DNA from: Nanobdellota archaeon
GTDB lineage: Archaea > Nanobdellota > Nanobdellia > SCGC-AAA011-G17 > ARS1403
NCBI GenBank assembly: GCA_002688395.1
Contig: NZCU01000014.1
Coordinates: 1 to 34,226, forward strand
Length of the DNA stretch: 34,226 nt
Reading direction: 5' to 3'
Shown here: piece by piece, positions 6,309 through 34,013 of the stretch
How positions within the stretch are numbered: the stretch's first letter is position 1
Layout of the letters: the number at the start of each line of letters is the position of its first letter
Notes under the pieces: model-generated
What the model saw: the letters and a program-made list of their open reading frames with translations, nothing else
The model's database searches: none
Told to the model about the DNA's origin: nothing
Position numbers and translations under genes: made by a program

Positions 6309-7111
6309 TGGAGCTTTTTAAGAAGAGTTTTAGTTTGTTAATTAATAATAAACAAAAAGTTTTTACTAGTGTAGGTGTTGATTTTATATTTTATATTTTA
6401 GTTTTGTTATCTGGATTTTATTTTTTTAATAAATTTTCTGAAAAGTTTGAAATAATAAATAATAATATTAGTAGTGTTGTTTTGGCTGATGAAGAACTTT
6501 CACAAGGAGCTTTACTTAAATTAAATGCTGTCTCTACTGCTTTGACAGATATGTTGTTAATTGTTATTGGTTATTTTATTTTAGTTTTAATTTTATGGGG
6601 GATCTTTAATGGTGCTGTTTGGTTAATATGTAAAAATATTATTAAAAATAAGAAACCTTTTGATGGTTTTGATATAACTTTTTTATCAAGATATTATATA
6701 TTAAGTTTATTTTGGTTTTTGATAACTGGAATTCTTTTCTTTTCTTTTTATAATTATAATTCTTATGTTTTATCTTTGGGAAATATTGGAATTTTAATTG
6801 TTAATTTACCAATTTTATTAATATTATATTTTGGAACTATTTCTTTTTCTTTGTTTTTTGTAAATGGAAAAACTATTAAATCTTTTACGAATTGTTTTAA
6901 ATTAGGATTAAGTAAAGTTTCTTTTTTAATTGCTTTTGTTTTATTTATTTTAATATTTTATTTTTCTGAATTTATTTTATTATCTTTAGGGAAGTTAATA
7001 AATTCTAATGTTTTTTCTATTTTAGGTATTATTGCTTTCTTGTTAATTATGGTTTGGTTTAGAGTTTATTTATTATTACTTGTAGAAAAATATGCGGGAG
7101 ACAGGATTTGA
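6308..7111 (+). CDS. Polytopic integral membrane protein (about 6-7 TM), unknown function
   Basis: I prefer the ATG at 6308, which overlaps the upstream TAA (TAATG), over the track start at 6284. The sequence is very hydrophobic and Phe/Leu/Ile-rich. The last 18 nt, including the TGA, lie inside the convergent tRNA-Leu. Confidence 0.6.
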   Translation: MELFKKSFSLLINNKQKVFTSVGVDFIFYILVLLSGFYFFNKFSEKFEIINNNISSVVLADEELSQGALLKLNAVSTALTDMLLIVIGYFILVLILWGIFNGAVWLICKNIIKNKKPFDGFDITFLSRYYILSLFWFLITGILFFSFYNYNSYVLSLGNIGILIVNLPILLILYFGTISFSLFFVNGKTIKSFTNCFKLGLSKVSFLIAFVLFILIFYFSEFILLSLGKLINSNVFSILGIIAFLLIMVWFRVYLLLLVEKYAGDRI

Positions 7112-7218
7112 ACCTGCGTAGGCACTAAGCCATCAGGTGTCTTACAGAAACGTCCTAAGCTTAGTCTTCTAAAATACAATTTTAGAATCTGACCCGTTTT
7201 CCGCTCCGGCACTCCCGC
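7093..7218 (-). tRNA. tRNA-Leu(UAG), class II (long variable arm), with two introns
   Basis: Minus strand: acceptor GCGGGAG/CTCCCGC, T-arm GCAGG-TTCAAAT-CCTGT, 15-nt variable region with a GGC/GCC stem, discriminator A. Removing 7161-7188 (28 nt, position 30/31) and 7139-7153 (15 nt, canonical 37/38) gives a perfect anticodon stem UCAGG/CCUGA and loop CUUAGGA. The canonical intron folds as helix / 3-nt bulge GGA / 4-bp CUUA:UAAG / 3-nt bulge ACA. Confidence 0.8.
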
Positions 7219-7284: not shown

Positions 7285-7548
7285 ATGGGTGCTTTAACAG
7301 AGATATTGGAGTTGTTAATAGGTTTTATTGTTCTTCCTAGGATTGTTCTTTTTGGTTGGATACTATTTGCTGCTTATTTTAATTTAAGCAGTCTTCTAAT
7401 AACTCTTGTAGCCCAAATTTTGATTCTTTTTGTCCTTGCACGTCTTTTCTTTAATTTTAGAAGACTTATTGCTTATGGATTGATAATTGCAGGATTGGGG
7501 AGTGTAGTAGATTTTTTAATTAGTCTCCTTGGATTTAGTTTAGTTTAA
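7285..7548 (+). CDS. Small membrane protein (about 3 TM), unknown function
   Basis: 87-aa hydrophobic ORF. A TATA-like TTTTTATAT lies about 30 nt upstream, in a promoter region shared divergently with tRNA-Leu. Confidence 0.45.
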   Translation: MGALTEILELLIGFIVLPRIVLFGWILFAAYFNLSSLLITLVAQILILFVLARLFFNFRRLIAYGLIIAGLGSVVDFLISLLGFSLV

Positions 7549-7582
7549 TTATTTTCTTTTAGAGTATTAAAGTATATACTAG

Positions 7583-7640
7583 AAAATATATATTACATTC
7601 AAATGACATACTTGCCAAGGGTGCGTGAGGCTTATAAACA
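7583..7640 (+). promoter_or_regulatory. Conserved upstream cassette, copy A (box1 GACATACTTGCCA, box2 CGTGAGG, TATA CTTATAAA)
   Basis: Near-identical to 30579-30636, which lies upstream of TnpB. The core is shared with 16621-16664, 19529-19574, 13827-13875 (minus strand) and 33013-33037. Confidence 0.7.
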
Positions 7641-7664: not shown

Positions 7665-9041
7665 ATGGACCAAATTATGGAGATATCAAGGGGAGATTTT
7701 TGGAAATATGAGAAGCCTCTATTTATTTTAAAAAAGAGGATTTGGGGAGGTGGTTACTTTTACTTTCCTAGAAAACTTGCTAGAGAATTACGTTTGGATC
7801 GAGATTGTGTGCTGTTATTTAGGATAGCTTCTGCTAAATCTTTATTTTGCTTGAGTAAAATTTCTGAAGTAAGAAAAGATTATGTTTTAAAGATAAGTTC
7901 TGATATTCTTAAAAACTTGAGAATTAAAACATCTAGTTTGCTTAAATTAGAGTTCTTACAAATTAAGAAAAGAGGTGATAAACCAAAACTTCACATTATG
8001 AAGAATCATATTGATGTTATTAGGTATATTCCAGGAGGTAATGAATTTGTTTGTTTTAAAAGACCAGGGAATTGGGTTACTGTTTATTATCTAAAAGGAA
8101 GGAGTTCTTCTAATTTGACAATAAGAAGATTTGTTAAATTAAATCAGATATTTCTTTGGAATATTGGTTTTTATTTGGCAGAAGGTGAAAAAGCTACGAA
8201 TTATAGATTTGGATCATCTAATGCTGAAATAGATTTAATTAAATTGTTTAGAGATTGTGGAGAGAAATGTTTTGGTTTAAGTAGAAATGATTGGTATGCA
8301 GAACTGAGATTAAAGTATGGTAATGAAGTAGCTGTTAAACACTGGATTGATAATCTTGGTCTAAATAAAGATAAAGTTAATGTTAGAATTGTTAAAAATA
8401 AACCTCCTGAAACTGAATTTGGAAATTTATCTTTGGTTTTTTATAATAGGATTTTAGGGGAAATTAACAAAAATATTATTTATGATTTAAAATTTATAAG
8501 GAATTTGAGTAGAGTGGAGAAATTGTACATTCTTCGTGGACTTGAAGCTGGAGATGGTACCGTACTAAAAAATGGTTGCTTAGAAATGGGTATAACCTGT
8601 CAGAAAAAAGAAATGGAGATTGTGAAGTATTTACTTTCTTCTGTTTGTTCTAAAGATCCATTTATAAGAGAATATTGGACTTGTGATAAGGTTTGGTTTG
8701 TTTTCCATAGAGGTATTGAAATGGCTAAAGAATACATCTTAGATGGACATTTTTTGGAGCATACTAACAGACGGAAAAGACTATTAAATTTGTATAAATA
8801 TTATAAATTTAAGGAACTTTTTTGTTTATGTTTGTTATTGAATAGAAAAAATACTGTCTGGGATTTAACTAAAAATATGGACCTTACATATCCTGCAATA
8901 AATGTAAGATTGAAAAATTTAACAAAAGATGGTTTTATAATTAACAAGAAAGATAAACTCTTTAAAAATAATAGGTCCTATGATATTAGAAGGTTTTATT
9001 TAACTAATAAAGGAAAAGAGTATCTTAATCATTTTCTTTAA
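7665..9041 (+). CDS. LAGLIDADG homing-endonuclease-like protein with N-terminal AbrB/SpoVT-like segment and C-terminal wHTH
   Basis: Two LAGLIDADG-type motifs are present (NIGFYLAEGEK; YILRGLEAGDGTV). The N-terminal YFYFPRKLARELRLDRDCVLLF is AbrB-like. The C-terminal NVRLKNLTKDGFIINKK is wHTH-like. Confidence 0.75.
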   Translation: MDQIMEISRGDFWKYEKPLFILKKRIWGGGYFYFPRKLARELRLDRDCVLLFRIASAKSLFCLSKISEVRKDYVLKISSDILKNLRIKTSSLLKLEFLQIKKRGDKPKLHIMKNHIDVIRYIPGGNEFVCFKRPGNWVTVYYLKGRSSSNLTIRRFVKLNQIFLWNIGFYLAEGEKATNYRFGSSNAEIDLIKLFRDCGEKCFGLSRNDWYAELRLKYGNEVAVKHWIDNLGLNKDKVNVRIVKNKPPETEFGNLSLVFYNRILGEINKNIIYDLKFIRNLSRVEKLYILRGLEAGDGTVLKNGCLEMGITCQKKEMEIVKYLLSSVCSKDPFIREYWTCDKVWFVFHRGIEMAKEYILDGHFLEHTNRRKRLLNLYKYYKFKELFCLCLLLNRKNTVWDLTKNMDLTYPAINVRLKNLTKDGFIINKKDKLFKNNRSYDIRRFYLTNKGKEYLNHFL

Positions 9042-12141: not shown

Positions 12142-12699
12142 ATGGTTAAAAAGAAAGAAGATATTATTGAACTTAAGAAGAAGATAGTTGGAGTGCTAGA
12201 AAAAGAGAGGGTTGTTGGAGATGTAAGTAATGAAAGTACTTTAATTTATGATAAAAGTAGATTTGGAGAGAGAGTTGGAGAGAAATTTCAGTATTCTTTA
12301 GTTGAAGGTTTGTTTTTATTAGATACTAAAAGAATGAATATTAAAGATGGAAGGGGTAAAAAGGTTAAATTTGATGATTTTTTAAAAAAAGCTAGGAGAT
12401 TTGATAAGAATTTTTGGGTTAAATACTGTGTTTTTAAAGATATGAGAAGTAGGGGTTATGTTGTTAAAACTGCTTTGAAGTTTGGAGCTGAATTTAGGGT
12501 TTATGGAAGGGGTATTAAACCTGGAGATGATCATGCTAAGTGGATTGTTTATCCTGTTCATGAATCTAATACAACTACTTGGTCTGAATTTGCTGCTAAA
12601 AATAGAGTAGCTCATAGTACTAGGAAAAGATTGCTCGTTGGTGTGGTTGATGATGAAGCAGAAGTATCTTATTGGGAGATATCTTGGATAAGGCCCTGA
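12142..12699 (+). CDS. endA: tRNA-splicing endonuclease (short, alpha-type subunit)
   Basis: The C-terminal catalytic domain is RGYVVKTALKFGAEFRVY...HAKWIVYPV. ATG at 12142, with TTG at 12136 as an alternative. Confidence 0.85.
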   Translation: MVKKKEDIIELKKKIVGVLEKERVVGDVSNESTLIYDKSRFGERVGEKFQYSLVEGLFLLDTKRMNIKDGRGKKVKFDDFLKKARRFDKNFWVKYCVFKDMRSRGYVVKTALKFGAEFRVYGRGIKPGDDHAKWIVYPVHESNTTTWSEFAAKNRVAHSTRKRLLVGVVDDEAEVSYWEISWIRP

Positions 12700-13802
12700 T
12701 TGACACTCCAGATAATTTTATTTTTGTATCCATTTTTTTGGATTATTCCTTCTTTTTCTAATTTGTTTAGATGTCTTATGGCTCCTCCATGTGTGAAAAG
12801 TAAACTATTAGCTATCTCTAACGTTTTTGAAGGTTTGTCCTTTAATATCTTTAAAATTTCTTTCTTTAATAAAATAGGATTTCTTGTTCTTTCTTTTCTA
12901 TTCCTAATTTTTATTTTGTACTCCATACTTAATTTTTTATGAGGACATTCAATAGGAATTGTATTGTGGAAATTTTCAAGACTTCTAGATGAAAGTGGTA
13001 GTGAGACTTTATCCTTTTTGTATCCATATTTGAAAATAACAATCTTATTAGTTTTAATATCTAAGTTTTCTAATAATTCTTTAACTTGTTTAATTAAATT
13101 TAAATTATGAATTGTTAGGTTTGGTTCTTTAGAAAAAGATCCGTCATCATCGAACAAAGCTCCAGTAAATGACGATTTACATTCTTTTGAGGATGAAAAT
13201 ATTAATTTTGGGATTCTATTTGGGTGCGTAATCTGAAAATCAAATAAATGTTGAATTATGTCTGAAATTGCTTTTGGAAATTCAATAATTGATGTGGTTT
13301 TCGTTTTTATTTCTCTAGTTCTAAAGTTGCCGAAAAGAGATAATTTTTCTATGAATTTTTCCCTTAGAGTTTTATCAGAATTCGCATAATATGGAGGATG
13401 ACTTTTTGCTTGACAGCCGTCTGCAATCATATGACCAATTATGGAATATAGCTTTGGAGTTTCTTTTAATGGCAGTTTTAGTTTTTTAATTTCCAAACCT
13501 GCTCTTACGCTAATTGCTAAAATATTCTTTTCTAGTTTGAACTTATTTTTGGAATCTATAATTTTTTTTAATAATTTTAATGGAATCGATTGAGAGTATT
13601 TAATCTTGTATTTTATACTAAATCCTCTTTCATAGTTTAGCAACGTTCTCAAATTAATATTTAGATATTTGGCAGTTTTTCTTTTGCTACCAAATTTTTC
13701 ATATAATTGATTAAATAATTTCTTTCTAAAGTTATCTTTTATCTTAACATATATTGTTTCTGGAAAATCTAAAATATCCCACTCCTTCAGTTTTCTTGAC
13801 AT
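12669..13802 (-). CDS. LAGLIDADG homing-endonuclease-like protein flanked by N- and C-terminal HTH/wHTH domains
   Basis: LAGLIDADG-type motifs are YSIIGHMIADGCQ and FTGALFDDDGSF. N-terminal HTH is KRKTAKYLNINLRTLLNYERG; C-terminal wHTH is GGAIRHLNKLEKEGIIQKNG. The 3' end overlaps the endA 3' end by 31 nt. Confidence 0.75.
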   Translation of the reverse strand: MSRKLKEWDILDFPETIYVKIKDNFRKKLFNQLYEKFGSKRKTAKYLNINLRTLLNYERGFSIKYKIKYSQSIPLKLLKKIIDSKNKFKLEKNILAISVRAGLEIKKLKLPLKETPKLYSIIGHMIADGCQAKSHPPYYANSDKTLREKFIEKLSLFGNFRTREIKTKTTSIIEFPKAISDIIQHLFDFQITHPNRIPKLIFSSSKECKSSFTGALFDDDGSFSKEPNLTIHNLNLIKQVKELLENLDIKTNKIVIFKYGYKKDKVSLPLSSRSLENFHNTIPIECPHKKLSMEYKIKIRNRKERTRNPILLKKEILKILKDKPSKTLEIANSLLFTHGGAIRHLNKLEKEGIIQKNGYKNKIIWSVNQGLIQDISQ

Positions 13803-13826
13803 TTAGTAATAATTAAGGATTTTTTC

Positions 13827-13875
13827 TTTATAAACTTCACGGGGGCATGACAAGTGTGTCAAGTATGTCAAGTGA
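13827..13875 (-). promoter_or_regulatory. Conserved upstream cassette, copy B (minus strand)
   Basis: The reverse complement reads CTTTCACTTGACATACTTGACACACTTGTCATGCCCCCGTGAAGTTTATAAA. It has the same box1/box2/TATA order as copies A, C, D and E, plus an internal TGACA...TGTCA inverted repeat. Confidence 0.65.
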
Positions 13876-13952
13876 AAGTAGCCTGGATTAGACCTTGATT
13901 TCTATATTCTAACATAATAATATTTTTAAAAAAAGTAGTATAATTTTAATAT

Positions 13953-16619: not shown

Positions 16620-16620
16620 T

Positions 16621-16664
16621 TTTTACCCGACATACTCGCCATACCCTCGTGAGACTTATAAATG
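16621..16664 (+). promoter_or_regulatory. Conserved upstream cassette, copy C
   Basis: TTTTACCCGACATACTCGCCATACCCTCGTGAGACTTATAAAT starts 1 nt after the rps17e stop codon. Confidence 0.7.
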
Positions 16665-16684: not shown

Positions 16685-17380
16685 ATGTATTGTTTGACTG
16701 ATTCTCAAAAAGTAGATTTGGCTTATTTAATTGGGGCTGTTATTGGTGATGGATCTTATATGAACACTAAGAGTGGAAAAAGACGAAATATTAGATTTTC
16801 TTTCGGTTCTTCTGATAGGGAGTTTGTCGTTATTATAAAGGACATTATTAGAGACATTTTTTCCCTTGAATTAAACATATGTGTTGAAAGATTATCTCTA
16901 AAAAATAATGCATGGAGAGACCATTATAAAATAAGGAGTAGAATATTGCACAGACATCTTAAAAAATATCTTCCTGATAAGAATAAAATACCTAGTTTTG
17001 TCTATAATTCAAACCACTTTATTAAAAGTAGTTTTATTTCTGGATTTTTTGATGCTGAAGGAGGAATTTGTGTTAGTACTATAAAATCCAGAAATGTTTT
17101 AGATAGGAGATTGTATTGTCATAATTTCAATATTGATTTATTGAATGAAATTAAAGGATACTTATCTGAATTAGATATTGATTGTTTTATACAGAATAGT
17201 AAGAGAGCTTATGCTTTAAATATTTGGGGTTATAAAAATTTGGTTAATTTTAAAAATAAAATTGACTTTAGAATTTATAGAAAGAGATTTAAACTATTAG
17301 GTGCTATAAATAGTTATAAATTTGTTCACAAAAAATACAGACATTTGAAAGTTGATGTTCAAAACTTAGGAGGGATTTAA
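16685..17380 (+). CDS. LAGLIDADG homing endonuclease (compact two-motif form)
   Basis: Classic motifs are present: LAYLIGAVIGDGSY and FISGFFDAEGGI. Confidence 0.85.
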   Translation: MYCLTDSQKVDLAYLIGAVIGDGSYMNTKSGKRRNIRFSFGSSDREFVVIIKDIIRDIFSLELNICVERLSLKNNAWRDHYKIRSRILHRHLKKYLPDKNKIPSFVYNSNHFIKSSFISGFFDAEGGICVSTIKSRNVLDRRLYCHNFNIDLLNEIKGYLSELDIDCFIQNSKRAYALNIWGYKNLVNFKNKIDFRIYRKRFKLLGAINSYKFVHKKYRHLKVDVQNLGGI

Positions 17381-17823: not shown

Positions 17824-19527
17824 ATGGTAAGTGGATTTGAAGCTTCGATACAGTCTAATTTATTTTTTAATATTGGATTAGTGCTAGTTGTTGCTACTAT
17901 TGTAGGTTATTTGGCTAGATTGATTAGACAACCATTGATTCCTGCTTATATTTTAGCTGGTATTTTAATTGGTCCTTTTGGTTTAGGATTGATAAAAGAA
18001 AGTGAAATTATAATTGCTTTAAGTGAAATTGGTATTGCGTTTCTGTTATTTATTGTTGGCTTGGAGATAGATTTAAAGAAATTAAAGGAAGTTGGATTAG
18101 TTAGTACTCTTGGAGGAACTATACAAGTAGCTTCTGTATTTTTTATTGGTTTTTTGGCAGCAATGGCTTTTGGATTTGTGAGGGTTGAGGCTATTTACTT
18201 AGGGTTTGTTCTAGCTTTTTCTAGTACCATGATTGTGATTAAGTTGTTGAGTGATAAGAGTGAGATGAACACTTTACATGGGAAAATTATTTTGGGGATA
18301 TTGTTGATGCAAGACATTATTGTTATTTTTGTTTTAATTTTATTGCAATCCTTGGGTAGCTTAAATTTATCTTTGTTATTGTGGGCGTTTTTGAAAGGCG
18401 CGATATTATTAGCTTTTGCAGTTCTTTTGAGTCAGTTTGTGTTACCTTTTATATTTAGATTTAGTGCTAGAACCCAAGAGTTGTTGTTTTTAAGTTCAAT
18501 TTCTGTTTGTTTTGTATTTTCTTTAGTAGCTTTTAGTTTTGGCTTTTCAATTGTTATAGGAGCTTTTTTAGCAGGGTTGGCTTTAGCTTCTTTACCTTAT
18601 CACTTTGATATAGCTGGAAAGATTATTCCTTTAAGAGATTTTTTCGCTACTTTATTTTTTGTTAGTTTAGGAATGGAGTTAGTGTTTGATTCTTTTAATG
18701 GATTGTTAGGGCCTTTGATTGTATTTTTGGGAATTATAATTTTGTTAAAGCCTTTGATTTTTATGATAATTACAAGTGTGTTTGGGTATAAGAAAAGAAC
18801 CGCGTTTTTTACTTCAATTTCATTAGCTCAAATAAGTGAGTTTTCTTTAGTTTTAGTTGCTTTAGGTTTGAACTTAGGACATGTTTCTAATCAAATTTTT
18901 ACTTTAACTGTGTTGTTGGCTATTATAACAATTGCTTTGACGTCTTATTTCATTAAATATGATAGAAATTTATATGGAATGTTCTCAAAAAAATTGAATG
19001 TTTTTGAAAGATTAGCTTTGAAAAATTCTGAGTTAGAACATTTACCTTATCATGAAAGAAAAGACATTATTATTTTTGGAGCTCATAGAATGGGAAGAAT
19101 ATTTATTGATACTTTAAATAAAGTTAAAAGTAATTTTGTTGTTGTTGATTTTGACCCTCAAATTATTAGAAATTTAATTAATAAAAAAATACCTTGTGTT
19201 TATGGTGATGTTGCAAATACTGAAGTTCTTAAAAGATTAAACTTGAATTCTGCTAAAATGGTTATAAGTACTATTCCTAATGATGAAGATAATATATTTT
19301 TAATTAAACATATTAAGAAAACGAATCCTGGTGCTATTCTTATAGTTACTTCTAGTCATGCAGGTAGTGCTTTGCATTTATATGATATTGGTGCTGATTA
19401 TGTTATTGTACCTCATTTATTGAGTGGAGAGATTGTTTCTCATAATTTGGTTGAATTAATTGAGAAGAAGAAAGATGTTGAGGAAATGAAAGTTAGGCAT
19501 ATTAAACATTTAAAGAGTAATAAATAA
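17824..19527 (+). CDS. Kef-type (CPA2) monovalent cation:proton antiporter with C-terminal RCK/TrkA-N domain
   Basis: About 12 TM segments typical of the Na+/H+ exchanger family, then a Rossmann-type IIIFGAHRMGRIF...VVVDFD. SD AAAGAGGT lies upstream. Confidence 0.8.
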   Translation: MVSGFEASIQSNLFFNIGLVLVVATIVGYLARLIRQPLIPAYILAGILIGPFGLGLIKESEIIIALSEIGIAFLLFIVGLEIDLKKLKEVGLVSTLGGTIQVASVFFIGFLAAMAFGFVRVEAIYLGFVLAFSSTMIVIKLLSDKSEMNTLHGKIILGILLMQDIIVIFVLILLQSLGSLNLSLLLWAFLKGAILLAFAVLLSQFVLPFIFRFSARTQELLFLSSISVCFVFSLVAFSFGFSIVIGAFLAGLALASLPYHFDIAGKIIPLRDFFATLFFVSLGMELVFDSFNGLLGPLIVFLGIIILLKPLIFMIITSVFGYKKRTAFFTSISLAQISEFSLVLVALGLNLGHVSNQIFTLTVLLAIITIALTSYFIKYDRNLYGMFSKKLNVFERLALKNSELEHLPYHERKDIIIFGAHRMGRIFIDTLNKVKSNFVVVDFDPQIIRNLINKKIPCVYGDVANTEVLKRLNLNSAKMVISTIPNDEDNIFLIKHIKKTNPGAILIVTSSHAGSALHLYDIGADYVIVPHLLSGEIVSHNLVELIEKKKDVEEMKVRHIKHLKSNK

Positions 19528-19528
19528 A

Positions 19529-19574
19529 TTTTACCCGACATAGTCGACATTGGTGCGTAAGGTATTTATAAAAG
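19529..19574 (+). promoter_or_regulatory. Conserved upstream cassette, copy D
   Basis: TTTTACCCGACATAGTCGACATTGGTGCGTAAGGTATTTATAAAA starts 1 nt after the antiporter stop codon. Confidence 0.65.
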
Positions 19575-19592
19575 AAAGACGTAATTTAGTGT

Positions 19593-20538
19593 ATGAAAAT
19601 TGATTTAATGAAGTATATTCCAAATAAAATCATTCCAAAACAAGGAAACTTGAAAGAATTCTCTATAAGTGAGCATAATAGTAATTTGTTGTTGTTTTAT
19701 AAAGGTTGTAGAAAGAAAATATTATTACCTAGGTTTGTTAATTTAAGTGAGGAGGATTTTGTTGCAATTGGTCTTTATCTAGCAGAAGGTCAAAAGTATG
19801 TTAATCTTGATAAGAAGTATCATCACTCTGGTGAGATAGATTTTTCTAATAGTGAGTTAATTTCTTTAGAACTGTTTTGTAAATTTATAAAAAAATTAAA
19901 TATATCTTCTAAGGAGTTTAGATGGGAAATTGTTTTAAATGTAAAAAGGAAATTTATAGATAAATCTTTGTTATTGAATTATTGGGTAGAAAATCTAAAC
20001 TTAGATTTTGAGAAAAGACGTCCTAAGAGTGTACGTTATAGCGGATCTTTATTTACAAATCCAAAAACTGTTAGTTAGTGATTATGGATGTATTCATTTG
20101 AAATATAGTTCTGTAATCTTTCGTAATTTTTTCTTGAATTTTGTATTTGAAATTTTTAATGATTTTTTGAAAATTAAGCATAAAAATATACTAGGATTAA
20201 TTCTGAAAGGTTATTTTGCAGGAGATGGAAATGTAACTTTTAATTTAAAGCCTAGAAGAAAGGCTGTTTATTTTTGCTCTAATGATATTAAATTATTTTC
20301 TATGCTAAAAGAAGCCCTTAAGACAATAGGAGTAAGCTCTATTAAAGAAACTTATCCTGAATATACTAGAACTCACACTAAGAGTTTAGTTTTTTATAAT
20401 TTTAAGGATTTTCAGTTGTTGGATGATTATGCTATTGCAGATACTGTTCCTTACAAAAGGAAGAAGTTTGAAAAACTTTTAAAGAGTTATAAATTATTGC
20501 CTCGAGCCGGATTTGAACCGGCGATCACTAGCTCATGA
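19593..20538 (+). pseudogene. LAGLIDADG homing-endonuclease-like gene disrupted by a 4-bp tandem duplication; paralog of 7665-9041
   Basis: Motifs are AIGLYLAEGQKY and LILKGYFAGDGNV. GTTAGTTAG at 20070-20078 contains GTTA twice; deleting one copy joins the two track ORFs into ...NPKTVSDYGCIHLKY.... The 3' end reads 41 nt into tRNA-Met. Confidence 0.75.
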
Positions 20539-20571
20539 AACTAGGGTTCTGCCAGACTAAACTATCGAGGC
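20498..20571 (-). tRNA. tRNA with CAU anticodon (elongator Met, or Ile2 if C34 is modified)
   Basis: The minus strand gives a full cloverleaf: acceptor GCCTCGA/TCGAGGC, D-stem GTTT/GAAC, anticodon stem CTAGT/GCTAG, loop TTCATGA, T-arm GCCGG-TTCAAAT-CCGGC, discriminator A. It lacks initiator features (no A1:U72, no GGG/CCC in the anticodon stem). Confidence 0.9.
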
Positions 20572-28272: not shown

Positions 28273-28548
28273 TTATAGTTTTATATTTAATACTTTTAAA
28301 ATAAAATCTTCTATTTCTTTTAGTTTTTCTTTATTCAATGAAATTTGTAAACCATAAGATGTTGGTTTTGTTATGATTAGTCTTTCTTTGATTAATTTTT
28401 TAGCTACTTTTCCTATGCTTTTTCCTAAATGAGATGGAAAACCTTTTTTTAATGTATCAAAATGTGTATGGACATTACCTATTACTTTTTTTCTCCTTAG
28501 ATGATAGAGAATTGTTGCTCTAATCTTATCTTCTTCTGAAAATTCCAT
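28273..28548 (-). CDS. Small hypothetical protein, possibly wHTH
   Basis: 91-aa basic ORF with its own AT-rich promoter region. No firm motif. Confidence 0.4.
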   Translation of the reverse strand: MEFSEEDKIRATILYHLRRKKVIGNVHTHFDTLKKGFPSHLGKSIGKVAKKLIKERLIITKPTSYGLQISLNKEKLKEIEDFILKVLNIKL

Positions 28549-28647
28549 ATATGATGAACGATTTGAAAATATTTAAATGTTTCTAATATTGAAATATAAA
28601 AACAAAAATAGAAATATTTATAAACTAACTAAGTTACATAATTACTT

Positions 28648-28956
28648 ATGAAAAATGAAACTGTTTTTTTAGAAGTTTTTGGGAATAACCCTATAATAAA
28701 AGTGCTAGATTTTTTGATAACCTATCAACTTTTTGACTATCCTTTAACTGAAATAGCTAAAAATTCCGAAGTGAGTTATTCAACCTTACAAACTTTTTGG
28801 GATAAATTAGAAAAAAATAATATTGTTGTTAAAACTAGAAGAGTTGGTAAATCTGATTTATTTAAACTAAATATAGATAATCCTGCTGTGAAACAATTAA
28901 TCAAATTAGATTGGAATTTAATTAAAGGAAGCGAAGAAAAGATTATAATTTCTTAA
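28648..28956 (+). CDS. Small wHTH transcriptional regulator
   Basis: KVLDFLITYQLFDYPLTEIAKNSEVSYSTLQTFWDKLEKNNIVVKTRRVGKSDLFKLN fits a helix-turn-helix plus wing pattern. Confidence 0.55.
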   Translation: MKNETVFLEVFGNNPIIKVLDFLITYQLFDYPLTEIAKNSEVSYSTLQTFWDKLEKNNIVVKTRRVGKSDLFKLNIDNPAVKQLIKLDWNLIKGSEEKIIIS

Positions 28957-30010: not shown

Positions 30011-30454
30011 TTAGAAATCTTTTGTTTCTTCGCCTATTGCTGTTTTTACATCTATTTCACTTCTATGTACTTGGGCAAATGATGGAGTTGCTACAATCCA
30101 ATCTTCTCCAAATCCTGCTATATCTCCTTCTATGGCATCGCATGTTTTTTTCAATTTGTTTACTGCTCTTTTTAATTCTACTATATCTTTGTCTTTTAAT
30201 GGCTTAATATTAACTAAAGCTATTGTGTATCCTTCTCTTAAACCATCTAAAGCAGGTTTTATATCTTGAAATTCGTTGATAATAAAAGGTTTTACAATTA
30301 TTTTTGCTTTTGATTCTGATGTGTCACTTGGGTTTATTTCCAGGTATTGGTCTTCTTCTGGAAGTTCTTCTAATTCATCATCTAGAGGTCCCATTATCTT
30401 TTCTTTAATTCTTGAAAAAGTATCTTTCATTTTTTTACAATTCTCCGATAACAA
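30011..30454 (-). CDS. sepF: Cell division protein SepF homolog
   Basis: Acidic N-terminus, then a SepF/DUF552-like core: IIVKPFIINEFQDIKPALDGLREGYTIALVNIKPL...AIEGDIAGFGEDWIVATP. Confidence 0.6.
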   Translation of the reverse strand: MLSENCKKMKDTFSRIKEKIMGPLDDELEELPEEDQYLEINPSDTSESKAKIIVKPFIINEFQDIKPALDGLREGYTIALVNIKPLKDKDIVELKRAVNKLKKTCDAIEGDIAGFGEDWIVATPSFAQVHRSEIDVKTAIGEETKDF

Positions 30455-30578
30455 TTAAAAAACAAAGATTTATATTTAAATATTTCTATTCTCTGAGCTA
30501 TGTACTGTATAAATTAGATTTTGTGTACGGTTACTACTAAAATATATATATATGAATTTGTTAGATAATACATATTAT

Positions 30579-30636
30579 AAAATATATATTGCATTCAAAC
30601 GACATACTCGCCATACCCTCGTGAGCTTTATATATG
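30579..30636 (+). promoter_or_regulatory. Conserved upstream cassette, copy E (upstream of TnpB)
   Basis: AAAATATATATTGCATTCAAACGACATACTCGCCATACCCTCGTGAGCTTTATATAT is collinear with copy A over about 58 nt. Its core is identical to copy C. Confidence 0.7.
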
Positions 30637-30655
30637 AATACATCTTATTATTTAT

Positions 30656-31707
30656 ATGGAAAAGACAATAATAGCATCTGTAATAAACTTAACAAAAAAT
30701 AAAAAAACATTGTTAGATAATGATTATAACAATTATCAATGGTGGATGTTATTTAGTATAGATAAAGGTTTATTAAGTGCATTTAAAGCAGCAAAAGGTT
30801 ACAAACAAAAAATAATCAAATATAAGGAATACCCTTTACCATTACAATCAAGATTTATTAAAGAATGGTTTAGGATTAGAGATACTAAGATAACTAAACA
30901 TTGGATTAAGATACCTAATAGTAAAAGAAAAGGTGTTGGTTTATGGCTTCCATTAAGATTCCACCAACAACTACCGGAATATTATACATTAAAAGATTCT
31001 TATTTAGTAAAAAAGAATAAAAGTACTATATTCATTTTTGTGTTAATATAAGAGAACCTAAATTGTACAAATCAAGAACCATAATAGGAATAGATTTGGG
31101 ATTAAAAAACCCAGTTACGTTAACAAATATGAAAACAAATAAAACATTATATTTAGGTAAGGAATTAAAACAAATAAGAGGAAAATATTTCTACTTAAGA
31201 AAAAAATTAGGAAAAGAAAAAAAGTTGAAACAAATAATAAAAATTAAGAACAAAGAAAAGAGAAAGATTAACACATTATTACACACAGTTTCAAAGGAAA
31301 TAATAATAAATGCTTATCAAAATAAATCAACAATAGTTATTGGGAAATTAAAGAATTTCAAGAAAAATAAAGGAAGAAAGTTTAATAGAAAAATATCATC
31401 ATTCTCTTATTATAAACTTACACAATATCTAGAATACAAAGCAAGAGAAAAAGGAATTCCATTCATTAAAGTTTCAGAGTTTAATACATCTAAAACTTGT
31501 AGTGTCTGTGGCACTATAGGGAAAAGAGATAAAAATTGGTTTAAATGTACTTGTGGATATGAAGATAATGCGGATAGAAATGCAAGTATAAATATTGCAA
31601 AACGAGGTTTAAGTCAAGAACTTAAATTAGGGGTAGTTGCTTCTACCCAGAAATCTCTCAATGAAGAGATAAGCACTAAAAGTGTGCAATCTTGTGTGAT
31701 TGCTTAA
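30656..31707 (+). mobile_element. tnpB: IS200/IS605-family TnpB (OrfB, RuvC-like nuclease), frameshifted; no TnpA present
   Basis: RuvC-I IIGIDLGLKN, zinc ribbon CSVCG...CTCG, RuvC-III NADRNASINIAKRG. The two track ORFs join if one A is restored in AATAAAAG (31016-31023), giving ...VKKNKKYYIHFCVNIRE.... Confidence 0.8.
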
Positions 31708-31740
31708 TTTGTGTGTAAAGCTTATTCTTTATAGATATTG

Positions 31741-31995
31741 TTACTGTATACTCTCTAATAAACTTACTATACTCCAAATTTGAGTCCTTACATGTTCAGG
31801 CATATTTGTTTCTTCTGAAATTTCTTCTAATTCTTGTAAAGCTTTATTTGTTTTAAATTCTGTAGTAGAGCTAGCTTCTGTTATTATAGAAATAATGTTG
31901 TCTATTTTTGATTTTATGTTTTTTGGCACACCATCATCATTAATTATCTTTTCGAATTCAGGGATAACCTCTTTACTAATTCTTTGTTCAGACAT
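31741..31995 (-). CDS. UPF0147-family small helical protein
   Basis: DDGVPKNIKSKI...EISEETNMPEHVRTQIWSIVSLLE resembles the conserved archaeal UPF0147 pattern (vPrNIR ... NmP.h.Rt.iW). Confidence 0.5.
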   Translation of the reverse strand: MSEQRISKEVIPEFEKIINDDGVPKNIKSKIDNIISIITEASSTTEFKTNKALQELEEISEETNMPEHVRTQIWSIVSLLESIQ

Positions 31996-32793: not shown

Positions 32794-33006
32794 TTATGTT
32801 TTTAATTTTAATATTTTGAATAGCCCTTTCTCTCCCAGGATTATCTCCTGAATTTTATCTTTTAATTTTGTATTTATTAGATAACTTACTGTCGTTTTGG
32901 CTAAATTTGTTTCTCTACTAATCTGTGATACATATGTTCCTTCAGGATGTTTTTTTAGAGCTTCTAATATTTTGTTTATTTTAGTTTGATCAACTTTTCT
33001 TACCAT
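32794..33006 (-). CDS. Small wHTH regulator, divergent from a LAGLIDADG gene
   Basis: KINKILEALKKHPEGTYVSQISRETNLAKTTVSYLINTKLKDK. I prefer the start at MVRKVDQ (33006) because the longer track start would cover the shared promoter. Confidence 0.5.
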   Translation of the reverse strand: MVRKVDQTKINKILEALKKHPEGTYVSQISRETNLAKTTVSYLINTKLKDKIQEIILGEKGLFKILKLKT

Positions 33007-33012
33007 AACTGT

Positions 33013-33037
33013 ACACTTGACCAAAAACTATATAAAG
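33013..33037 (+). promoter_or_regulatory. Degenerate copy F of the conserved upstream cassette
   Basis: ACACTTGACCAAAAACTATATAAAG retains box1 (ACTTGACCA) and the TATA but lacks box2. It is flanked by ACTGTACA direct repeats at 33009-33016 and 33052-33059. Confidence 0.45.
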
Positions 33038-33060
33038 ATTAGGATTTTATTACTGTACAT

Positions 33061-33873
33061 ATGAACAGAAATAAATATCAGAGATTATATGAAGAGGAAA
33101 AGAATTTGATTAAGAATTTAACTTTGAAAGGAAATAGTTTGAGACAGATTTCTGAGATAACGGATCTTGGAATAACTACTATATACTATCAAGTGAGAAA
33201 ATTTAAACCCAAACAGAAAAAGGATTTTGTTTGTAATTTAAGTGATTTTCAAATAGGAGAATTAATTGGATCTTTTGCAGGGGATGGAAACTTTTACTAT
33301 TCCTCTCATGGTAGGAGTGGTCACTATAGGATTAGATACTATCTTTCGTATAAAGATGACATGGATTATTCTAAGTATTTATCCCATCTATTAGAAATGA
33401 TGAACTTACGCACCAATACTTTTTTTAAGAAGTATAAAGGAAAATTAAGTGTAATTGAATTGGTTGTTAGATCTAAAGATTTTTATAAATTTATAAGGAA
33501 GTATCTCATTTGGGAAGGCAAAAAAACTTATTCTGTAAGATTGAAATCTTACATTAATGGATATAGCGATGATTTCTTGAGAGGCTTTGTTAGAGGTCTT
33601 ATGGATACGGATGGATTTGTGGAAATATCTGGCGTTGCTTTTGGTGTTGTTTCTAGAGATCTTGTTTTAAATTTTGAGGCTATTCTAAGCAAGTTTAATA
33701 TTGGATCTAAATTATCAATCAAACCTGGGAAAGGAAATTGTAAGGACTGTTACCTATGTCGTATTCCTAGAAGATATTTGGAATTGTATAATGAAATTTT
33801 TGGATTTAGTAACTTAAGAAAAATTAACTCTTTAATGAAAATATTAAGTAAAACTGGGACTGCGCGGATTTGA
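33061..33873 (+). CDS. LAGLIDADG homing endonuclease with N-terminal HTH
   Basis: HTH is LRQISEITDLGITTIYYQVRK. LAGLIDADG-type motifs are IGELIGSFAGDGNF and FLRGFVRGLMDTDGFV. The last 19 nt lie inside tRNA-Pro. Confidence 0.8.
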   Translation: MNRNKYQRLYEEEKNLIKNLTLKGNSLRQISEITDLGITTIYYQVRKFKPKQKKDFVCNLSDFQIGELIGSFAGDGNFYYSSHGRSGHYRIRYYLSYKDDMDYSKYLSHLLEMMNLRTNTFFKKYKGKLSVIELVVRSKDFYKFIRKYLIWEGKKTYSVRLKSYINGYSDDFLRGFVRGLMDTDGFVEISGVAFGVVSRDLVLNFEAILSKFNIGSKLSIKPGKGNCKDCYLCRIPRRYLELYNEIFGFSNLRKINSLMKILSKTGTARI

Positions 33874-33928
33874 ACCGCGGTTAGGAAGTCCCAAACCTCC
33901 AGTGATAACCAAACTACACTACAGTCCC
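33855..33928 (-). tRNA. tRNA-Pro(UGG)
   Basis: Minus strand: acceptor GGGACTG/CAGTCCC, anticodon stem GGAGG/CTTCC, loop TTTGGGA, T-arm CGCGG-TTCAAAT-CCGCG, discriminator A. Confidence 0.9.
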
Positions 33929-34013
33929 AATAAGAAAGAATTAAGAATTTTCGTTTATAAATTTATTTAATTTTACTATAAGCTATAAAAATTGTGAAAT
34001 TTTACTAATTGTT

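Follow-up and report, generated by a model that had tools for sequence, protein, structure and literature searches.

The free-standing homing endonuclease genes of T-even phages, the seg and mob genes, use generic middle or late phage promoters, and in bacteria LexA-controlled integron integrases, integrative and conjugative elements and prophages come under the host DNA-damage regulon by carrying its operator. To our knowledge, the cellular regulation of free-standing homing endonuclease and TnpB genes is largely uncharted, and archaeal DNA-damage regulons are known essentially only from the Sulfolobales. There, Orc1-2 binds an ANTTTC motif, which is situated 23-55 nt upstream of the ATG and marks damage-responsive genes that are regulated together, and works with TFB3 (PMC6061795), and the response is reported to induce genes for DNA transfer rather than for repair (PMC2246294). 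In other archaeal systems, namely EarA of the fla operon, Ptr2 and the Sulfolobus ara-box, activator sites lie just upstream of weak TFB-recognition elements (BREs), and such activators are thought to recruit TFB or TBP (PMC5512572). Here we describe a compact DNA element, henceforth the module, from contig NZCU01000014.1, a 34-kb stretch of 29% GC (the window, by which the whole stretch is meant) of a DPANN archaeon from the Tara Oceans marine metagenome. The module appears to be a promoter element of ~60-110 bases, and is found ahead of LAGLIDADG and TnpB nuclease genes and of nre, a host DNA-repair gene. The reading that we favour, with somewhat better than even confidence, is that of a lineage-specific archaeal promoter module, dependent on a regulator and belonging to a repair-type regulon, which is carried by mobile nuclease cassettes. 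The nearest genomes are ARS1403 and ARS1286, both labelled 'Nanoarchaeota archaeon', and all sequences compared are metagenome-assembled genomes (MAGs) or metagenome contigs.

A search of the window with the 25-mer pattern GACATACTYGCCNNNSSBBCGTGAG, which spans the first conserved box (box1) to the second (box2), with up to three mismatches, recovered exactly five matches, at 7605, 13860 (minus strand), 16629, 19537 and 30601, against a chance expectation of 0 in 100 shuffles. Four of these copies stand before LAGLIDADG genes (A-D) and the fifth before the TnpB gene E. With an nhmmer profile made from 14 copies, 16 matches of 30-52 bits were obtained in the window and nine ARS loci (L004-L012), and none between 16 and 30 bits. 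Upstream of ~25 ordinary genes of the window neither box1 nor box2 was found by pattern, profile or comparison of upstream regions. The initial annotation had placed the motif before all five LAGLIDADG genes and the TnpB gene, and before nothing else. The motif is real at A-E and is indeed missing from the ordinary genes of the window, but its exclusiveness does not extend genome-wide, where the host gene nre carries it, and the sixth copy, before LAGLIDADG gene F, falls away. Neither the pattern nor the profile matches that copy, which retains only ACACTTGACCAAA, a single stretch resembling the last repeat of the L013 module, before an ordinary promoter in which the 8 nt preceding the TATA box are A-rich. 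Four, not five, LAGLIDADG genes therefore carry the module. The homologues of F at L010 and L013 (30% identity) have the full three-repeat form.

Read from 5' to 3', the module comprises an optional AT-rich extension of 35 nt (Ext), a T-rich TTTYAC, a run of 9-mers, a GC-rich box and a TATA box, followed by the start codon. The 9-mers are two or three tandem 9-bp direct repeats of the consensus YGACAYACT at ~-40 to -70, which in copy C read CGACATACT, CGCCATACC and CTCGTGAGA, then CTTATAAAT; one additional 9-mer, making three, is present in B and at L010, L013 and L027. As the number of 9-mers varies, the upstream part is a direct-repeat array of variable copy number. In the nine long-form copies, which have the extra Ext, conservation begins ~37-40 nt before box1. 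The upstream extension which had been noticed as common to A and E, AAAATATATATTRCATTCAAA, is present and recurs in other genomes, and, again as first described, the modules of C and D both start with TTTTACCCGACA (TTTTACC) right behind the stop codons of the S17e and Na/H exchanger genes. Two spacing classes are apparent, namely CGTGAR followed by 2 nt and TTATA, and CGTAAR followed by 4 nt and TTATA.

The GC-rich box2 (CGTGAG or CGTAAG) occupies the position of the BRE. In the module the 8 nt ahead of the TATA box resemble CGTGAGNC and are 60% GC, against an A-rich 25% GC in 19 ordinary promoters of the window, and the promoters of the ribosomal-protein, TFB, Alba and tRNA-synthetase genes all have A-rich BREs. 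The module thus lacks the purine- or A-rich character of a consensus BRE, and this suggests dependence on a helper factor. The TATA octamer starts at -28 to -33 from the ATG in A-E and at -28 to -44 in 19 ordinary genes of the window; the start codon follows ~21-30 nt after the TATA box, a short distance which implies a leaderless mRNA. This agreement of TATA box and ATG distance with ordinary promoters is what might be expected if the module were merely the generic strong promoter of the organism, seen at these genes only by sampling. However, none of the ~25 ordinary window genes has box1 or box2, 14 kb of unselected ARS1403 sequence (L060) contains no match, the loci L044, L045 and L046 have none outside nre, and the BREs of ordinary promoters are of the A-rich kind described above. 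The scenario that had been named in advance as fatal to its being special, a module upstream of many ordinary genes, is thus not borne out, and a generic promoter is very hard to credit.

The position of the conserved boxes upstream of the TATA box also bears on the proposal that the module encodes a structured transcript, be it a small RNA, a leader of the riboswitch type or something else. Transcription through box1 and box2 could begin at a TATA-like, AT-rich stretch (AAAATATATATT) found upstream in the long form, but the short form has no such stretch, RNAalifold predicts 0 consensus pairs on 16 copies, and the module has no match in Rfam. The spacer varies between GGTG and CCCY, and no complementary partner was found for this variation, leading us to reject it as RNA covariation or as a strand flip. 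Hence we give almost no weight to a structured transcript, one of the possibilities that the initial annotation had listed.

The module is conserved far above its cargo. Protein identity is 23-38% between LAGLIDADG pairs and 26-36% between TnpB pairs, as divergent as had been claimed, whereas the 28-nt core from box1 to box2 averages 75% identity (91 pairs; range for the module ~75-100%) and coding DNA over its first 120 nt averages 33%, close to the random level (91 pairs). Copies C and E share 26 identical nt. This disparity indicates that the sequence is maintained, by selection or homogenisation, and supports the earlier argument for selection on the DNA rather than recent duplication.

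Inserted cassettes and their borders

Comparison with ARS1403 contig NZBI01000009, which aligns collinearly over most of the window (~75-83% nucleotide identity), reveals empty sites for three of the cassettes. At site B the endA stop codon leads directly to the promoter of the next gene, at site D the stop codon of the exchanger gene is followed by 3 nt and tRNA-Met, and at site E the SepF and UPF0147 genes are 74 nt apart. Cassette B, read on its own strand, opens with GGCTACTTTCAC and then the repeats; cassette D fits exactly between the stop codon of the exchanger gene and the tRNA-Met 3' end and begins with ATTTTACC, then box1. In both the module is 8-13 nt from the 5' junction. At site A, ARS1403 has a different, oppositely oriented LAGLIDADG gene, with homology resuming 12 nt outside its module; in L029 the D site is taken by yet another LAGLIDADG gene, whose module is B-like. 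The empty sites at B, D and E establish that the module belongs to the inserted DNA and lies inside the inserts; they rule out the alternative, raised at the outset, that it is part of the flanking host sequence, and together with the different cassettes found at the A and D sites of relatives they favour the suggestion that it marks the 5' boundary of a mobile cassette. On this view the cassettes would be small mobile units, complete in themselves, with the module on the 5' side as promoter and a single nuclease open reading frame (ORF) as cargo, namely a LAGLIDADG gene, a TnpB gene or, once, a possible HNH/NUMOD-like gene, and their insertion sites would be the 3' ends of host and tRNA genes. 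For element E no empty site was found in the same population, in which all contigs with an identical UPF0147 protein also have tnpB, and an Rfam search of 30450-31800 gave no match.

Three of the cassettes are bracketed by imperfect direct repeats: A by 15 nt (7545-7559, 9025-9039), B by a 17-nt repeat of the endA 3' end (12685-12701, 13884-13900) and D by 22 nt (19506-19527 and ~20473-20494; p<0.005). At site B the copy that keeps the reading frame differs by three synonymous changes, and the relic copy is the same as the sequence in ARS1403. The repeats of A, B and D are target sequence, i.e. the 3' end of the neighbouring host gene, one copy keeping the host frame. These 15-22-nt repeats resemble the outcome of att-type integration, and would be predicted neither by simple homing nor by IS200/605 transposition. 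As a general feature of the cassettes they were rejected, being significant only for D, A and, in a three-way comparison, B; none was found at the ARS1403 cassettes.

These borders invite the view that the module is mainly a recombination or integration site, att-like or a homology 'handle' for the insertion or swapping of cassettes, with promoter activity secondary. The closeness of the module to the 5' junctions of B and D, the att-style restoration of the target 3' end by the repeats of A, B and D, the different cassettes held by relatives at the same sites, once in opposite orientation, and the independence of module subtype from cargo type are all consistent with it. Nevertheless, what is repeated at the flanks is the target and not the module, the ARS1403 cassettes are without such repeats, the module is internal in element E, and no recombinase gene was found in the cassettes or adjoining them in the window. 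Furthermore, the module keeps a fixed phase to the TATA box and start codon and stands before nre, where nothing has inserted. A primary role in recombination hence seems improbable.

In ~13 of the ~20 LAGLIDADG cassettes examined the cassette ends within a few nt of a tRNA gene or overlaps it. The RNA genes concerned in the window are at 20498-20571 (D, tRNA-Met), 33854-33929 (F, tRNA-Pro) and 7093-7218, and examples elsewhere are L005, L006a, L008, L010, L011, L013, L024, L029, L033 and L039. Several cassette ORFs read into the opposite-strand tRNA, yielding C-termini such as ...AGFEPAITSS and ...TARI. L004a ends at an apparent 5S rRNA gene, judged by eye. At one tRNA-adjacent site an orthologous LAGLIDADG pair is shared by a marine MAG and a groundwater contig (L010 4673-5446 and L013 1537-2307), with proteins 68% identical, flanks ~71-73% identical and a ratio of nonsynonymous to synonymous substitution (dN/dS) of ~0.17, which at a shared site points to long-term retention under purifying selection.

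Host carriers and distribution

An exact pattern search demanding box1, box2 and TTATA, run over 596 Gb of GTDB genomes (one per species), returned 9 matches, all in the two related MAGs ARS1403 (8) and ARS1286 (1), and no chance matches. Eight lie ahead of LAGLIDADG genes, and the ninth ahead of a gene whose product has the domains Nre_N and Nre_C (nre); the module is confined to nuclease genes and nre; confinement to selfish nuclease genes, for which a scan had been proposed, does not hold. BLAST added two further ARS1403 copies with a variant box2, both upstream of LAGLIDADG genes. A scan of the JGI and Tara metagenomes gave 31 loci, seven of which are obvious chance matches (high-GC contigs, <=15 bits); the remainder added new LAGLIDADG cargos and two intact TnpB genes (L014, L041), and TnpB is found with the module in three independent cases. 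A truncated ORF behind the module in L018 has a weak match to an HNH endonuclease (PHROG) and is given low weight. At L027 and L032 the module is upstream of a small ORF and radA. In L028 (135-1048), a DPANN-like contig of 37% GC, a module-like promoter of 25 bits precedes a Bro-N protein, whose C-terminal half is weakly similar to DNA-damage-inducible protein D of E. coli (with E 5e-4 it falls far short of the family cutoff); this case too is given low weight. No match was obtained in IMG/VR, and a viral origin was rejected on this ground. The module thus appears to be confined to a narrow DPANN ("Nanoarchaeota") lineage.

The copy before nre in ARS1403 lies in an intergenic space of ~98 nt beside a divergent gene, and three further genomes have nre orthologues of 84, 77 and 76% identity preceded by the module at 42, 39 and 30 bits, the 77% orthologue coming from the window's own sample. 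Across the four (L012, L044, L045, L046) the module scores 30-46 bits, at the same position, with similar TATA-to-ATG spacing and conserved synteny, in an intergenic space of only 83-100 nt without any cassette remnant. In the window's own population (L044) the nre module is almost the same as copy B. The small divergent gene beside nre encodes a membrane protein and was for this reason rejected as the regulator. These features suggest that the module is the native promoter of nre.

The radA operon of sister lineages appears to be preceded by a family member or by a promoter of matching architecture. At L027 (6114-7472) a bona fide module of 26 bits stands upstream of the small ORF and radA. 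In L055-57 the Ext is shared, with 22-25 bits against a shuffle maximum of 15.7 when scored with a position matrix built from long-form Ext copies and with the best and significant match just upstream of the radA operon, as is box2/TATA (CGCAGGG and TATA), but the direct repeats differ. In L051 the radA promoter has CATTTAC repeats in a 9-bp phase. The candidates P0179, P0129 and P0125 for the radA of the window lineage were rejected as belonging to other lineages, RadA being too conserved to single out the orthologue, though the architecture matches that they yielded were informative. In these operons radA is preceded by a conserved small ORF of 87-99 aa that has no Pfam family (L027 6114-7472, L051 5556-6984, L055 4540-5930), and three DPANN radA operons have an untranslated leader of ~100-135 nt downstream of the repeat-bearing promoter.

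According to a further account, the module began as a constitutive promoter private to a single ancestral nuclease cassette, was passed on by descent and transferred among cassettes by recombination, and was later taken by nre and radA from decayed cassettes, with no regulon or repair logic involved. Against it, the nre copies stand at an orthologous locus in four genomes, where the short intergenic space retains no cassette remnant; moreover, both host carriers have roles in DNA repair or recombination, a coincidence that chance would hardly produce, and the GC-rich BRE position is unlike that of constitutive promoters. That all LAGLIDADG cargos form one very divergent family and that the module stands at the cassette 5' end would fit such an ancestry, as would the partial clustering of subtypes by genome (CCCCC in ARS1403), which suggests homogenisation. 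Nonetheless, the module has stayed 75-100% identical while the cargo proteins drifted to 23-38%, and it also precedes non-homologous cargo, TnpB three times independently. Also in favour of this account, solo modules could arise from cassettes such as D and E, which are apparently decaying copies with intact modules because the same split ORFs recur in other contigs: the two ORFs of D are also called in the Tara scaffold L002, contig L042 being 100% identical, and those of E in L058. On balance we consider this account unlikely.

Our favoured reading, that of a regulated promoter of a repair-type regulon, accommodates the ordinary TATA position, the variable 9-bp repeats and the nre locus of four genomes, and in this respect the initial idea of a shared operator or promoter has gained ground. 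Most likely a sequence-specific DNA-binding protein on the 9-mers would help TFB and TBP to use a promoter with a non-consensus BRE; alternatively, a TFB paralogue might read the odd BRE. Given that nre and the cassettes share the module, the selfish nucleases would be expressed under the same control as the host recombination and repair genes. LAGLIDADG enzymes and TnpB rely on host recombination after cutting, and TnpB has a role in transposon retention; sharing a promoter with nre and radA would therefore be biologically coherent. The activity of the module as a promoter, its being activated and not repressed, the regulator that acts on it and a signal consisting of DNA damage or recombination are all inferred.

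Several observations weigh against the favoured reading. Promoter function is predicted from the position of the sequence, and LAGLIDADG gene F stands without the module. In element E the module lies ~105 nt inside the left end and not at the tip. No module was detectable at nre orthologues of <=69% identity, and the pattern scan of ARS1403 gave no match at radA. The repair regulon is deduced from two host genes, nre and radA, and the weak DinD-like case. Finally, the statement that all ARS1403 LAGLIDADG genes carry the module is biased, as the ARS1403 loci were picked through the motif.

A more ambitious version is tentative and, in our view, somewhat less probable than its negation: there might be a DPANN repair and recombination regulon (nre, radA, possibly more) whose portable promoter was acquired by LAGLIDADG, TnpB and possibly HNH-like genes, so that cutting would occur only when the host recombination machinery, perhaps for DNA exchange, is on. 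In a stronger variant some LAGLIDADG paralogues would be domesticated members of the repair response, for which the single same-site orthologous pair with a dN/dS of ~0.17 might be an example. Under the favoured reading one compact DNA element would tie host repair genes to three classes of selfish nuclease that need host recombination to spread, and, if correct, it would supply a testable cis-element for a DPANN repair regulon and an example of a promoter travelling with interchangeable nuclease cargo. Within this lineage its sequence also offers a simple means of finding mobile nuclease cassettes and the borders of their insertions.

Nuclease genes and other features of the window

The housekeeping genes of the window include those for TFB, Sm, S8e, RNase Z, EndA, GMP synthase, S17e, Alba, GlyRS and SepF, and among them are dispersed five LAGLIDADG-type genes (A, B, C, D, F) and one TnpB gene (E). 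The initial count of five LAGLIDADG genes is borne out by Pfam for B, C, D and F and is only probable for A. The LAGLIDADG_3 domain is recovered in B, C, F, the second ORF of D (D2) and L020, pointing to the presence of a homing-family endonuclease domain, while the TnpB protein E has the domains Cas12f1-like_TNB (9e-24) and OrfB_IS605. Protein A has no match in a Pfam search; it is 28% identical to the N-terminal half of D (D1; E 3e-5), and profile alignment with hhalign (E 0.05) places both LAGLIDADG motifs in register, on which basis gene A is probably a LAGLIDADG gene. Its winged helix-turn-helix (wHTH) domain gave weak matches of the Lrs14/HlyU type, and its predicted structure, with a pLDDT (predicted local distance difference test) of 36, is an unusable model.

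Table 1. Coordinates of the module copies, inserted cassettes and nuclease genes in the window
Feature	Position	Strand	Details
Module copy A, Ext	7569..7603	+	AAAGTATATACTAGAAAATATATATTACATTCAAA; long form; kept in 9 long-form copies
Module copy A, core	7604..7639	+	9-mers TGACATACT, TGCCAAGGG; 0 mismatches; profile 42.6 bits; box2 CGTGAG 7624-7629; TATA TTATAAAC 7632-7639, at -33; ATG of gene A 7665
Module copy B	13827..13880	-	TTTCAC, 9-mers TTGACATAC, TTGACACAC, TTGTCATGC, CGTGAA; 3 mismatches; 40.6 bits; TATA TTTATAAA 13834-13827; ATG 13802
Module copy C	16620..16663	+	TTTTTACC, CGACATACT, CGCCATACC, CGTGAG 16648-16653; 50.8 bits; TATA TTATAAAT 16656-16663; ATG 16685; directly after S17e stop codon 16617-16619
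Module copy D	19528-19572	+	ATTTTACC, CGACATAGT, CGACATTGG, CGTAAG, TATA TTTATAAA; pattern match 19537
Module copy E	30566..30635	+	Ext 30566-30599; core CGACATACT, CGCCATACC; 48.4 bits; CGTGAG 30620-30625; TATA 30628-30635; ATG of tnpB 30656
Claimed module copy F	33013..33037	+	ACACTTGACCAAAAAC, then ordinary TATATAAA promoter; degenerate remnant at best
Cassette B insert	12702..13883	-	module and LAGLIDADG gene; 1182 extra nt; absent from ARS1403
Cassette D insert	19528..20497	+	module and frameshifted LAGLIDADG gene; 970 extra nt; absent from ARS1403 (L060)
TnpB element E insert	30496..31734	+	~1.23 kb extra; right border ambiguous, 31722 to 31734
LAGLIDADG gene A (probable)	7665-9041	+	458 aa; C-terminal winged-helix domain
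LAGLIDADG gene B	12669-13802	-	Pfam LAGLIDADG_3 and ArsR-type HTH
LAGLIDADG gene C	16685-17380	+	Pfam LAGLIDADG_3
LAGLIDADG gene D	19593-20538	+	frameshifted: 19593-20078 and 20008-20538; Pfam LAGLIDADG_3 on D2
TnpB gene E	30656-31707	+	frameshifted: 30656-31051 and 31063-31707
LAGLIDADG gene F	33061-33873	+	Pfam LAGLIDADG_3

The window contains several wHTH genes, none of which is linked to the motif. A divergent pair of small winged-helix genes (28273-28548, 28648-28956) falls in a segment, 28275-28941, that is absent or replaced in ARS1403. In place of 32815-33865, which covers the wHTH gene 32794-33024 and LAGLIDADG gene F beside tRNA-Pro, ARS1403 has two unrelated small ORFs, and this wHTH gene may travel with F. 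The minus-strand stretch 7093-7218 is a 126-nt Rfam tRNA match of 42 bits, not called by ARAGORN, and is presumably an intron-containing tRNA; it adjoins the variable segment with cassette A in the window and a different cassette in ARS1403. An ORF for an 87-aa membrane protein (7285-7548) lies inside the segment 7219-9040 that varies between the window and ARS1403, and outside the repeat-bounded cassette A. Over the first ~25 kb of the window GC skew is strongly positive (0.3-0.5), and beyond ~26 kb it is close to zero; the change follows the shift in gene orientation, from a majority on the plus strand to a majority on the minus strand, and seems to reflect a purine bias of the coding strand, not necessarily a replication landmark.

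Comparison with known systems

The cassettes are reminiscent of the seg and mob genes of T-even phages, which likewise consist of a promoter and one endonuclease ORF placed between or at the ends of conserved genes, vary in presence among close relatives and include different endonucleases at equivalent sites. Unlike those genes, the cassettes have a special module that is missing from ordinary genes and common to host repair genes. They also differ in residing in a cellular archaeon, in comprising both LAGLIDADG and TnpB genes, in their many insertions at tRNA genes and in the 15-22-nt imperfect target repeats at three of the insertions. Element E, in turn, shares with the TnpB-only elements of the IS200/IS605 group its TnpB domains, its form as a discrete insertion without a transposase gene and a promoter at the left end, but this promoter is the module of the LAGLIDADG cassettes and nre, and the gene is frameshifted.

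In its architecture the module resembles the sites of EarA, Ptr2 and the ara-box, in which short repeated sites upstream of a non-consensus BRE are followed by a normal TATA box; it is distinguished from these by its YGACAYACT repeats at a 9-bp phase, by its gene set and by its lineage. With the Sulfolobales damage regulon it has in common a short promoter-proximal motif, several module copies having A-TTTCAC just 5' of box1, whereas the motif itself and the phylum are different. We know of no mobile nuclease genes among the members of that regulon. The LexA-controlled elements of bacteria follow the same logic, in that selfish genes there act when host repair or recombination is induced. In those bacterial elements control is by a repressor at a palindromic operator and the cargo consists of integrases, while the system described here has an archaeal BRE/TATA promoter, direct repeats upstream of the core promoter and homing-type nucleases. 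If the favoured reading is correct, the module-bearing cassettes would represent an archaeal counterpart of the mobile elements wired to the SOS response.

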